Shown here: positions 4,127-5,338 of the stretch, piece by piece
Layout: each line of letters starts with the position of its first letter
Position numbering within the stretch: the stretch's first letter is position 1
Assembly (NCBI RefSeq): GCF_003334385.1
Contig: NZ_QOWN01000068.1
Length of the DNA: 10,419 nucleotides
Origin: Escherichia coli
Lineage (GTDB): Bacteria > Pseudomonadota > Gammaproteobacteria > Enterobacterales > Enterobacteriaceae
Direction: 5' to 3' (one strand)
Position numbers and translations under genes: made by a program
Notes under the pieces: generated by a model
The model's database searches: none
Told to the model about the DNA's origin: nothing
Seen by the model: the letters and a program-made list of their open reading frames with translations, nothing else

Positions 4127-4552
4127 CTAGTAACGTCTAAAATACCTAACATTTCCTTGATAAAATGCCAGTACACGCTGCATAGCTTCGCTCTTCCGGC
4201 ACTCGCGACAGATTATATTCAGACGCCTGTCGTAGCGGCGTATTTCGCCGTCTGGTAACGACCAGATAAGGTCCGGATCAACCACTGCAGGTTTCTTCAC
4301 CTTTGCCCTTGAGAGTTTTTTGCGGGCATTTTGCCAGTCCTTACGCGCCTGTTCAGACGGGAATAACCCGTAACCAGAGTTGTATACATCACCACTGGCA
4401 ACCAGCTCTCTGGCAAGAACGCTCATCAGATATCTTGTCGCACCTGTCTTGGCTTCCAGTTGCCGTAACGTCTCGCGCCCACTCCGGCGTACTAGCTCAA
4501 CAACCTGCCCTTTAATTTTTTCTCGCTCTTCTTGTGTAAATACTTTTGCCAT
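4127..4552 (-). CDS. Hypothetical prophage protein (141 aa from the ATG; the tracked ORF starts at a TTG)
   Basis: ORF with ATG at 4552 (MAKVFTQEE...) preceded by GAAGG; basic C-terminus with a CRECRK pair; 15-nt gap to the upstream gene suggests co-transcription. Confidence 0.6.
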   Translation of the reverse strand: MAKVFTQEEREKIKGQVVELVRRSGRETLRQLEAKTGATRYLMSVLARELVASGDVYNSGYGLFPSEQARKDWQNARKKLSRAKVKKPAVVDPDLIWSLPDGEIRRYDRRLNIICRECRKSEAMQRVLAFYQGNVRYFRRY

Positions 4553-4567
4553 AAGCGCCTTCGGCAA

Positions 4568-5338
4568 TCACTTTTCCGATACAACACGGCGGGAAGAATC
4601 AGTAATCTGTCGAACAATATCCCGGTGCTTGTTCAGCTCCCGCAGCGCGGCGCAGACTCGTTCCCACTTCTGAACATCACTTTTCGCCCTGCGCAGCGCC
4701 AGGTTTGCCCTGCGCAGGGACGGAAAAATCAGCTCATCTGCTTGCGTTTCGGTAAACGATGGCAACGACTGCACAATGTCCGCCACAGTTTCTGTTTTAA
4801 TTTCTTCCTGTGTTGCGGCTTCCCGGACTGGTAACGCAGCACCTGCTGGCTGAGGAAAGGCCTTACCATCACTTTCCGTTACCAGCGCGGCTTTCGGCTC
4901 TGCTGGTAAATTATCGCCCGGCATGCAGTAACGAAATTTACCGTTCTGATTAACGCGTGCCAGCCGCCCCGTTGCGGTTACCACCGCCAGCGTGGAAGCA
5001 ACCTTGCGAGTACTGACACCGAACTTACCCGCCAGTTCCTCACACGTTTTAGCACCATCCTGACCGATAAACTCAATCATCATGTCTGCGGTAACTTTTT
5101 GTTCGACCTCCCCGGTCAGCATATCCTGTGCTTCAGATTTTACTGGCCGCTCTTCGGTTACCCGGGATTCACCTTCGCCAGCCAGAAACCAGGTGTGACC
5201 CGTTTTATCAACAACGCCATTTTTTTTGAGTTTCCACAGTTCGTTGAGAACTTCTTCACGGCTGATATCAAGCCGCGCCGCCAGTTCAACAGAATTGGCT
5301 TTTCCCATCGCTTTCAGTGCATGCAATACGGTTTCCAT
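4568..5338 (-). CDS. Prophage protein with N-terminal winged-helix-like region, DUF1627-like (256 aa)
   Basis: Long ORF with GAGGT Shine-Dalgarno upstream of the ATG at 5338; two repeated HTH-like segments (NSVELAARLDISREEV.., AKTCEELAGKFGVSTRKV..); the DUF1627 label is from memory. Confidence 0.6.
   Translation of the reverse strand: METVLHALKAMGKANSVELAARLDISREEVLNELWKLKKNGVVDKTGHTWFLAGEGESRVTEERPVKSEAQDMLTGEVEQKVTADMMIEFIGQDGAKTCEELAGKFGVSTRKVASTLAVVTATGRLARVNQNGKFRYCMPGDNLPAEPKAALVTESDGKAFPQPAGAALPVREAATQEEIKTETVADIVQSLPSFTETQADELIFPSLRRANLALRRAKSDVQKWERVCAALRELNKHRDIVRQITDSSRRVVSEK

Follow-up and report, generated by a model that had tools for sequence, protein, structure and literature searches.

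Layout of the locus

Two adjacent genes next to a QueH gene in an Escherichia coli prophage raise the question of what they encode, which position of the phage lambda map they occupy and whether they work together with QueH. The first-pass annotation had described them as uncharacterised genes of a nin-like region that may form a functional unit with QueH. The window analysed here, a stretch of 10,419 nucleotides of E. coli DNA (contig NZ_QOWN01000068.1, assembly GCF_003334385.1), is the early-right operon of a Rac/Qin-type lambdoid prophage, encoded on the minus strand. The gene order on this strand is cro-like, YdaT, O-like initiator, DnaC-like helicase loader, DUF1627, DUF977 and a cargo slot which is here occupied by QueH; hok/sok, DUF968, RusA and Q follow 3' of the cargo slot. 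Both open reading frames, of 256 and 141 codons, are found where they had been placed (Table 1), and significant Pfam matches together with thousands of homologues show that they are real genes and not chance ORFs. Their location between the replication genes and Q is confirmed as well. The explanation that we consider probable, if far from certain, is that the pair consists of a YdaW/DUF1627 protein and a long form of Ren in the ren slot, that it has a counter-defence role, and that QueH is independent cargo.

Table 1. Features of the DUF1627–DUF977 region; positions are those of the window
Feature	Position	Strand	Evidence
DnaC-like helicase loader, directly upstream of DUF1627	5364..6104	-	NCBIfam NF009043, E 7e-149; phrog_50
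DUF1627/YdaW-family gene, 256 aa	4568..5338	-	Pfam, PHROG, RefSeq, YdaW homology
DUF1627 N-terminal winged-helix domain, residues 1-52	5183..5338	-	AF2 pLDDT 91-97, H-H-H-E-E topology
DUF1627 second winged-helix domain, residues 84-138	4925..5089	-	AF2 pLDDT 90-94
DUF1627 conserved long C-terminal helix, residues 208-255	4574..4717	-	AF2; family alignment
DUF977/LygF/Ren-like gene, 141 aa, pI 10.2	4127..4552	-	Pfam, PHROG, hhalign
DUF977 winged-helix domain, residues 7-65	4358..4534	-	AF2 pLDDT about 92
DUF977 basic helix, residues 67-83, QARKDWQNARKKLSRAK	4304..4354	-	AF2
Ren-family C-terminal peptide, residues 112-131, NIICRECRKSEAMQRVLAFY, includes CRECRK	4160..4219	-	match to lambda Ren
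QueH (epoxyqueuosine reductase), context only, outside the pair	3287..3973	-	Pfam PF02677, E 1.2e-65

The 141-aa protein as a homologue of lambda Ren

The smaller gene starts at an ATG with GAAGG 6 nt upstream, in agreement with the 426-nt RefSeq gene; the mechanical ORF list has a longer version of 146 aa that starts from a TTG at 4567. Its product matches Pfam DUF977 (PF06163; E 3.4e-28, positions 1-133 of the 134 of the model) and, full-length, phrog_142, the 'Ren-like exclusion protein' family (E 8.1e-47). Lambda Ren (96 aa) also matches phrog_142 full-length, with E 1.6e-41. Pfam DUF977 does not recognise lambda Ren; when a DUF977-only and a Ren-like-only profile were compared by hhalign, they aligned over 104 columns with a probability of 97.9% and E 6.4e-13. 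The 141-aa DUF977/LygF protein is a long-form homologue of lambda Ren. It is 69-96% identical to LygF-annotated proteins in 24 phage records and is thus a member of a family that occurs in the Sdr I prophage remnant of Salmonella Enteritidis and in Stx and Rac phages; the name LygF goes back to lygA-F of Sdr I (PMC4490851).

The protein shares its winged helix and the invariant C-terminal peptide with lambda Ren; an additional basic helix and a disordered linker make up the approximately 45 residues by which it is longer. More specifically, the basic helix (AF2 pLDDT about 92 through residue 70, mean 86 over 71-80) is nearly invariant across DUF977 alleles and missing in lambda Ren. Some DUF977 proteins of other genera have 86-113 aa and are devoid of the Ren C-terminal peptide. 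A scan of genome contigs returned 14 loci, too few for neighbourhood statistics, with the long form confined narrowly to Escherichia.

The basic 141-aa protein was said to have a CRECRK motif, which is correct (pI 10.18; residues 115-120, nt 4193-4210). The motif is part of the Ren C-terminal peptide, which is 60% identical to residues 73-92 of lambda Ren (E 5e-7), and the pattern common to both proteins is N-x-I-C/F-x-E-C-R-x-S-x-x-M-x-R-V-L. In 11 sequences, taken from four genera, N112, C118, R119, S121, M124, R126 and L128 show no variation. The peptide differs from lambda by 8 synonymous codon changes, and its conservation through synonymous changes points to selection at the protein level. 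Given the many synonymous changes, we ruled out that the stretch is conserved for its nucleotides, e.g. as a recombination linker or terminator. It was also considered whether CRECRK is a cysteine motif binding zinc or another metal. This was ruled out since C118 is the only invariant Cys of the family: the position of C115 is Phe in lambda Ren and L243, and the 11-sequence alignment contains no other conserved Cys or His.

The ren slot

In lambda the order is O-P-ren-ninB, with ren directly after P and before ninB. Because the 141-aa protein is a Ren homologue, the DUF1627–DUF977 pair occupies the place of ren in lambda, last in the replication operon and followed by the nin-equivalent region, and not, as had been proposed, the slot of ninB-ninI. 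Lambda ren likewise comes last in the pR replication operon and is followed by the nin/cargo region. The nin region of lambda is non-essential and, like the pair, is situated between the replication genes and Q, but the nin-equivalent stretch of this prophage is that from QueH to RusA. There were no matches to the Nin families (NinB-NinI) among the Pfam, PHROG and NCBIfam hits of either protein. The replication genes of HannyBb, mEp460, Rac-SA53 and Shigella phage 75/02 are followed at once by DUF977, either alone or together with DUF1627. DUF977 comes directly after the initiator in HannyBb and mEp460, while in the window DUF1627 stands between and separates the Ren-like gene from the loader gene, which is different from lambda.

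The 256-aa protein is a full-length YdaW

The larger ORF begins with an ATG and has GAGG 11 nt upstream. The protein matches Pfam DUF1627 (PF07789) over the whole model (1-155/155, E 1.5e-98) and phrog_630 over 1-252/253 (E 4.5e-135), a 98%-identical copy is named DUF1627 domain-containing protein in RefSeq, and YdaW of E. coli K-12 is 58% identical over residues 1-154. It represents the YdaW/DUF1627 family in full length, with two winged-helix domains that disordered linkers connect to a long C-terminal helix. YdaW of the K-12 Rac prophage (b1361) has the same two winged-helix domains and its gene is also found directly after a DnaC-like one, ydaV; in contrast to the complete protein of the window, it is truncated to 186 aa, the Rac deletion having removed the conserved C-terminal helix.

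Two HTH-like segments had been noticed in this protein. They correspond to two winged helices in the AF2 model, both with pLDDT above 90, and many weak HTH profile matches fall on both of them, including ArsR/MarR/Csa3-type matches at residues 2-62. The second winged helix is related to that of Ren/DUF977: hhalign against the DUF977/Ren profile gave a probability of 95% (E 2.8e-8), and residues 84-137 match phrog_142 with E 5.9e-6. Residues 139-205 form a disordered linker rich in P, A and E (pLDDT 48-65), followed by C-terminal helices at 208-237 and 239-255 (pLDDT 89-96). In an alignment of 41 family members L34 and W50 are invariant, the C-terminal pattern IPxFT...DDLIIP...EIRRTKxxLxxLEKxR is conserved, and the arrangement of first winged helix, second winged helix, variable linker and C-terminal helix is kept down to 21% identity.

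Fold comparisons and the possibility of a regulator

Searches with both AF2 models against PDB and BFVD gave nothing beyond generic winged-helix matches, and a sequence search of PDB with both proteins found no solved relative. With Foldseek, the DUF977 model retrieved generic winged-helix regulators only. Its closest superposition is on the Z-alpha domain of PKZ (rmsd 1.4 Å over 57 columns), and Z-alpha/Z-beta domains (ADAR1, ZBP1, PKZ) are also the best PDB sequence matches for the winged helices of both proteins, with E 1.6e-7 and 5.5e-7 for ADAR1. A wing tryptophan is present in both. The signature of Z-alpha comprises an Asn and a Tyr in helix 3, the Tyr contacting Z-DNA, and a Trp in the wing. 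In the HMMER alignment with ADAR1 this Tyr is replaced by Arg48 in DUF977 and by Ala in lambda Ren. A Z-DNA-binding domain was ruled out as the signature Tyr is absent, and the Z-alpha resemblance is generic fold likeness only. Neither NCBIfam nor PADLOC assigned a function to either protein: PADLOC defence-system models did not match DUF977, and with DUF1627 the matches were limited to the winged-helix parts of the Csa3/CasR models.

Winged helices like those of the ArsR, MarR and GntR families would suit ordinary sequence-specific transcription regulators, acting on delayed-early or cargo genes of the prophage or on the lysis-lysogeny decision. DUF977 is strongly basic, and a list of predicted transcription factors of unknown function includes K-12 YdaW (PMC9308461). 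On the other hand, the downstream cargo is hypervariable and therefore a constant regulatory target is absent, and within the Ren family conservation is highest in the short C-terminal peptide and not in the recognition helix. To our knowledge lambda Ren has no regulatory phenotype. We consider it improbable that the two proteins are such regulators.

Transcription and the question of a fusion

The gaps between the genes had been described as short. This holds for those between the DnaC-like gene and DUF1627 (25 nt) and between DUF1627 and DUF977 (15 nt); the gap between DUF977 and QueH is 153 nt (174 nt if the RefSeq start of QueH is used), which is rather long for that description. No terminator-like or promoter-like sites were predicted on the coding strand from DUF1627 to QueH, so co-transcription of the pair with QueH, which had been put forward earlier, stays plausible and probably takes place. 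Once the prophage is induced or a cell infected, transcription from a pR-like promoter would express DUF1627 and DUF977 along with the replication genes.

The two ORFs are in the same frame, separated by a TGA (4568-4570), and read-through would yield a single fusion protein. This frame is kept in 113 of 119 close alleles, and database proteins of 403 and 372 aa contain both Pfam domains (P0123 and P0125). The fused entries are, however, singletons on short contigs, DUF977 has its own RBS and ATG, and each gene is also found alone. In the diverged alleles of Rac-SA53, 75/02 Stx, phiSTEC1589 and Rac MN652886 the ORFs are out of frame, which rules out the fusion; it deserves hardly any credence.

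Independence from QueH

Of the 5,426 complete E. coli genomes, DUF977 is found in 4,022, DUF1627 in 2,655 and QueH in 995; the whole three-gene block is present in 577. Every pairwise combination of the three genes was seen, and the alleles of DUF1627 and DUF977 reshuffle freely. Among phage records, 12 have both genes of the pair, 12 DUF977 only and 12 DUF1627 only. QueH occurs in a single E. coli phage record, one without DUF1627. HannyBb has QueH and no DUF1627, PPompW has DUF1627 and neither DUF977 nor QueH. There is no positive association between DUF1627 and QueH (odds ratio 0.27), and 13 of 19 DUF1627-negative loci carry QueH.

A unit of DUF1627, DUF977 and QueH that replaces the nin region would be consistent with the location of all three genes on one strand with no terminator predicted between them. 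In IMG/VR loci, DUF977 is immediately upstream of QueH in 50 of 53 cases, with a spacing fixed at 178 nt. Against such a unit stand the independent assortment, the figure of 54 of 130 IMG/VR loci in which QueH comes after DUF977, and an upper limit of about 17% for the share of DUF977 places with QueH (1,017 vs 6,130 places). QueH copies are moreover nearly clonal, 705 of 995 being at least 99% identical, and the linkage is therefore one of recent descent. The cargo slot is also taken by many other genes, among them BstA, PD-Lambda-2 and an NgoMIV restriction-modification system. The three genes thus assort independently, all with unrelated annotations, and the proposal of a functional unit has to be given up as extremely unlikely. 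QueH is independent, swappable cargo of the adjacent hypervariable slot and no partner of the pair.

Function of the pair

Our literature search on DUF1627, DUF977, LygF and prophage QueH retrieved no functional study. The earlier term 'uncharacterised' is right as to experimentally established function, but not as to classification, since both proteins belong to catalogued families (DUF1627/YdaW and DUF977/Ren-like/LygF). By analogy with relatives, our best-supported guess for the function of the pair is non-essential counter-defence. In the classical genetics of Toothman and Herskowitz from 1980, Ren reportedly gives lambda resistance to Rex exclusion. Rex proteins and Ren interact in a two-hybrid assay (10.1101/2021.04.19.439022), and ren is dispensable for lambda (PMC10695390). 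ydaW was found among prophage blockers of the RcaT toxin of retron-Sen2, as a single match of the overexpression screen, with a truncated protein and no record among the 11 re-validated blockers (10.1101/2020.06.22.160242). RecE is a known retron trigger, and distant DUF1627 and DUF977 genes adjoin Exonuc_VIII/RecT, far from replication genes.

If this analogy holds, both proteins would shield the phage during its development from abortive-infection systems, whether these belong to the host or to resident prophages. Nucleic acid or a sensor protein may be the ligand of the winged helices, and a surface for docking or oligomerisation may be provided by the conserved C-terminal peptide or helix. 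One could go further and regard the ren slot of lambdoid prophages as a dedicated counter-defence locus with two winged-helix anti-abortive-infection families, which we find possible though doubtful. Ren/DUF977 and YdaW/DUF1627 would then be aimed at Rex and at retron or other Abi systems and placed beside the triggers of such systems (replication proteins here, RecE/RecT in other phages), and the invariant Ren peptide would be a docking element for a conserved target.

The pair could also be a set of replication accessory factors, last genes of the replication module, that bind the origin or the replisome and tune initiation or helicase loading, e.g. by tempering loader toxicity. It is probably transcribed with the O-like and DnaC-like genes. 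In 106 of 107 deduplicated E. coli prophage loci a helicase-loader gene precedes DUF1627 (DnaC-like in 62, lambda-P-like in 44), which fits a replication role at least as well as counter-defence. In 20 loci without DUF1627, DUF977 directly follows the initiator and a separate loader is absent; distant relatives likewise come after IstB/DnaC-like or Phage_lambda_P genes. Thomason et al. view Ren as 'likely involved in DNA replication' (10.1101/2021.04.19.439022). A strict coupling of DUF1627 to the helicase loader is, however, weakened by lambda, which has P and no DUF1627, and by the above-mentioned distant genes after Exonuc_VIII/RecT. Two unrelated loader types are found with the same DUF1627 alleles, alleles reshuffle freely, ren is dispensable, and neither P-lethality nor replicative killing needs ren (PMC3640518). 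A replication role is on these grounds rather unlikely, and we keep to counter-defence as our guess.

Conclusions

In lambdoid prophages of E. coli both genes are accessory, ordinary and very common, and they belong to families already known. DUF977/LygF is a long Ren and DUF1627 is a full-length YdaW, and both identities are hidden by the Pfam and RefSeq names.

These catalogued families are present in about one half to three quarters of the complete E. coli genomes, which leaves little discovery value in the genes themselves. The slot directly downstream of the pair is a cargo and defence hotspot of Rac-type prophages. For both of these abundant families the literature hints at a role that may lie in counter-defence.

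Gene order and position in the operon

The window can be read as the early region of an E. coli lambdoid prophage of the Rac/Qin type, whose rightward operon lies on the minus strand.

Features of the prophage early region (window coordinates)
Feature	Coordinates	Strand	Remark
DicF RNA	10104-10155	+	77 bits; in leftward immunity region
cI/DicA-like repressor	7887-8306	+	
cro-like	7505-7786	-	
YdaT	7096-7521	-	
O-like initiator	6111-7088	-	
DnaC-like loader	5364-6104	-	
256-aa ORF (DUF1627)	4568-5338	-	
141-aa ORF (DUF977)	4127-4552	-	
QueH	3287-3973	-	PF02677, E 1.2e-65
hok/sok	2894-3219	-	
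DUF968	1388-2446	-	
RusA	1007-1387	-	
Q-like antiterminator	189-1010	-	

In phage lambda, ren lies directly after P and before ninB and is part of the cro-cII-O-P-ren transcript (PMC3640518); therefore the DUF1627 and DUF977 pair occupies the ren slot. The pair had earlier been placed in a nin-like region, which does not hold; what corresponds to nin in this prophage extends from QueH to RusA. Both ORFs are preceded by Shine-Dalgarno-like sequences at proper spacing. The short gaps and co-transcription proposed for the three genes are borne out in part: 25 nt separate the DnaC-like gene from DUF1627 and 15 nt DUF1627 from DUF977, and neither a terminator-like nor a same-strand promoter-like site was predicted between DUF977 and QueH, but that last gap (153-174 nt) is not short.

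Directly downstream of QueH there is a complete hok/sok type I toxin-antitoxin locus, 3044-3219(-) and 2894-3106(-) (Rfam sok 120 bits, Hok NF007279). A mechanically called 135-aa ORF at 2448-2855(-) is probably over-extended: its phrog_1212 match covers only the C-terminal 66 residues, and the RefSeq gene at the equivalent place is 273 nt (locus L001, 3450-3722).

Identity of the two proteins

Both ORFs, their lengths, the CRECRK motif (residues 115-120) and the basic character of the shorter product (pI 10.18) are as the first-pass annotation described. The genes are indeed uncharacterised, but their families are known and abundant, and the assignment to DUF1627 and DUF977/Ren is secure, as is that of their position. 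A 2.2-kb query spanning both ORFs matched at least partly 4,613 of 5,426 complete E. coli genomes, and in the best matches RefSeq names the genes 'DUF1627 domain-containing protein', 'DUF977 family protein' and 'epoxyqueuosine reductase QueH'.

The 256-aa protein matches Pfam DUF1627 (E 1.5e-98) and phrog_630. The ydaW gene of the K-12 prophage Rac has the same place, after ydaV; its product is 58% identical to the 256-aa protein over residues 1-154 and is truncated at 186 aa. The DUF1627 family is small, with 170 representative clusters in an exhaustive search of 1.84 billion proteins. Aligning 41 full-length members, the most divergent at 21% identity, and modelling with AF2 (mean pLDDT 78) give winged helices at residues 1-52 and 84-138 (both pLDDT above 90), which correspond to the two HTH-like segments noticed earlier, disordered linkers at 53-83 and, P/A/E-rich, at 139-205, a conserved IPxFT...DDLIIP patch near residues 190-205 and a long helix at 208-255 (pLDDT 89-96). 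Winged helix 2 and the Ren/DUF977 winged helix are related (hhalign 95%, E 2.8e-8). The DUF1627 gene in one 'Actinobacillus phage' record (PP818812) shares 80% identity with its E. coli counterpart.

The 141-aa protein has hits to both Pfam DUF977 (E 3.4e-28) and phrog_142, named 'Ren-like exclusion protein' (E 8e-47). Its homologues in phage records are annotated as Ren-like or as LygF; the latter name stems from a prophage remnant of Salmonella Enteritidis, Sdr I (PMC4490851). Lambda Ren is not recognised as DUF977 by Pfam; it is also a full-length phrog_142 match (E 1.6e-41), the two C-termini share 60% identity (BLASTP, E 5e-7), and DUF977-only and Ren-like-only profiles align across 104 columns (97.9%, E 6.4e-13). 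N112, C118, R119, S121, M124, R126 and L128 are invariant in 11 sequences from Escherichia, Silvania, Enterobacter and Pseudocitrobacter. Synonymous differences from lambda at 8 of 20 codons of the C-terminal peptide therefore indicate selection on the peptide and not on a DNA element. CRECRK as a metal site is ruled out, because only one Cys is invariant. In the AF2 model (pLDDT 74.5), a winged helix (7-65) is followed by a basic helix (67-83) that lambda Ren lacks, then by a disordered linker and finally by a short helix on the conserved peptide; in some relatives from other genera (loci L245, L247) two winged helices precede the same peptide. Short contigs in MAG bins labelled Collinsella, Lachnospiraceae and Bacillota (L235-L238, L240, L242; genome_contigs) also encode DUF977 proteins, 70-97% and mostly 91-97% identical to the one in the window, probably as contamination by E. 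coli prophage DNA.

Fold searches returned only generic winged-helix proteins. The best PDB sequence matches of both proteins' winged helices were ADAR1 Z-alpha/Z-beta (E 1.6e-7 and 5.5e-7), with ZBP1 and PKZ Z-alpha also found, the latter superposing at 1.4 A rmsd; a Z-DNA-binding domain is ruled out, since the Z-DNA-contacting Tyr is conserved in neither protein. At 4565-4570 the DUF977 reading frame follows the DUF1627 TGA stop directly and in frame, and rare fused proteins carry both Pfam domains (403 aa, P0123; 372 aa, P0125). Most close alleles (113 of 119) preserve the frame, but diverged phage alleles do not, which rules out a read-through fusion as a conserved feature.

Association of the genes

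The first-pass annotation suggested a functional unit with QueH, to be checked by co-occurrence of the three genes. Across complete genomes, phage records and IMG/VR loci they do not travel together, and there is no unit with QueH. Of 5,426 complete E. coli genomes, DUF977 was found in 4,022 (6,130 places), DUF1627 in 2,655 (5,300 places) and QueH in 995 (1,017 places), and the whole block at 80% coverage or more in 577. DUF977 and DUF1627 occur in 24 phage records each, with 12 containing both, always adjacent and in constant order, 12 only DUF977 and 12 only DUF1627. HannyBb, the sole E. coli phage carrying QueH, has the order O-like, DUF977, QueH and lacks DnaC and DUF1627. Among 149 deduplicated IMG/VR loci, DUF1627 was followed by DUF977 in 117/117 and DUF977 preceded by DUF1627 in 118/138, DUF977 was followed by QueH in 54/130 and QueH preceded by DUF977 in 50/53; 37 of 51 QueH loci contained DUF1627, and in this biased sample the association of DUF1627 with QueH is, if anything, negative (odds ratio 0.27, p 0.02). 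The alleles of DUF1627 and DUF977 reshuffle: 27 loci combine a DUF1627 of at least 97% identity to the window with a DUF977 below 80%, and 12 show the reverse.

The neighbours vary as well. At 106 of 107 E. coli loci (IMG/VR, L007-L231) DUF1627 is preceded by a DnaC-like (62) or lambda-P-like (44) gene, two unrelated types of helicase loader, and in all 20 E. coli loci without DUF1627, DUF977 directly follows the initiator without a separate loader. A DUF1627 homologue 33% identical to that of the window stands in the order rep_O, DnaC-like, DUF1627, DUF977, overlapping by 14 nt a DUF977 gene whose 86-aa product is without the Ren peptide; homologues of 24% and 35% identity follow Phage_lambda_P, the latter with a 126-aa gene between. 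In distant relatives (L249, L253, L233) DUF1627 or DUF977 comes after Exonuc_VIII/RecT instead, as with homologues of 28% (after Exonuc_VIII) and 27% identity (Exonuc_VIII, RecT, DUF977, NinX, DUF1627). Thus the two are loosely associated early-region accessory genes beside replication or recombination functions, neither bound to one partner.

Possible function

In classical genetics, ren was reportedly defined by the Rex-exclusion sensitivity of ren mutants. The gene is non-essential (PMC10695390), and in a two-hybrid assay O and Ren interact with Rex proteins (10.1101/2021.04.19.439022). ydaW is listed among prophage genes that block the retron-Sen2 toxin RcaT on overexpression (10.1101/2020.06.22.160242). 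It is on this Ren/Rex and ydaW/RcaT literature that we tentatively favour, by analogy, a counter-defence role for both proteins. The Exonuc_VIII/RecT adjacency may be a trigger-blocker linkage, because RecE is a reported retron trigger, its neighbour RacC being a blocker (10.1101/2020.06.22.160242). Next in likelihood comes a replication-accessory role, Ren being 'likely involved in DNA replication' according to the authors of the Rex two-hybrid work (10.1101/2021.04.19.439022), and after it plain transcription regulation by these winged-helix proteins. As a whole, the explanation is somewhat probable, with identity and modularity near-certain and function uncertain. The original observation is confirmed and its interpretation partly supported.

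QueH and the variable cargo slot

QueH copies are almost clonal (at least 99% identity in 705/995), and NCBIfam has no model matching the prophage QueH. The DUF977-QueH spacing is constant, 178 nt between aligned ends in 54 of 58 loci, which reflects recent common descent and not function. The HannyBb counterpart of the 153-nt spacer (3974-4126) carries the annotation of a 207-nt 'DNA methyltransferase' fragment; together with the constant spacer, this suggests that QueH displaced part of an older cargo gene or was brought in with it. In loci without QueH, DUF977 and hok lie 1.1-4.8 kb apart, and the slot holds a BstA-like Abi protein, a PD-Lambda-2 component plus a partner, a nucleoside deoxyribosyltransferase-like protein or several unknown PHROGs; an NgoMIV restriction-modification pair occurs there together with QueH. 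This stretch (3107-4126 in the window, 3893-5903 in L001, also in L077 and L086) is a hypervariable cargo slot and has the look of a defence/moron hotspot in Rac-type prophages. A cobalamin-dependent enzyme, QueG, is already present in E. coli. The prophage QueH would be a cobalamin-independent epoxyqueuosine reductase carried as lysogenic-conversion cargo, which is puzzling given QueG.
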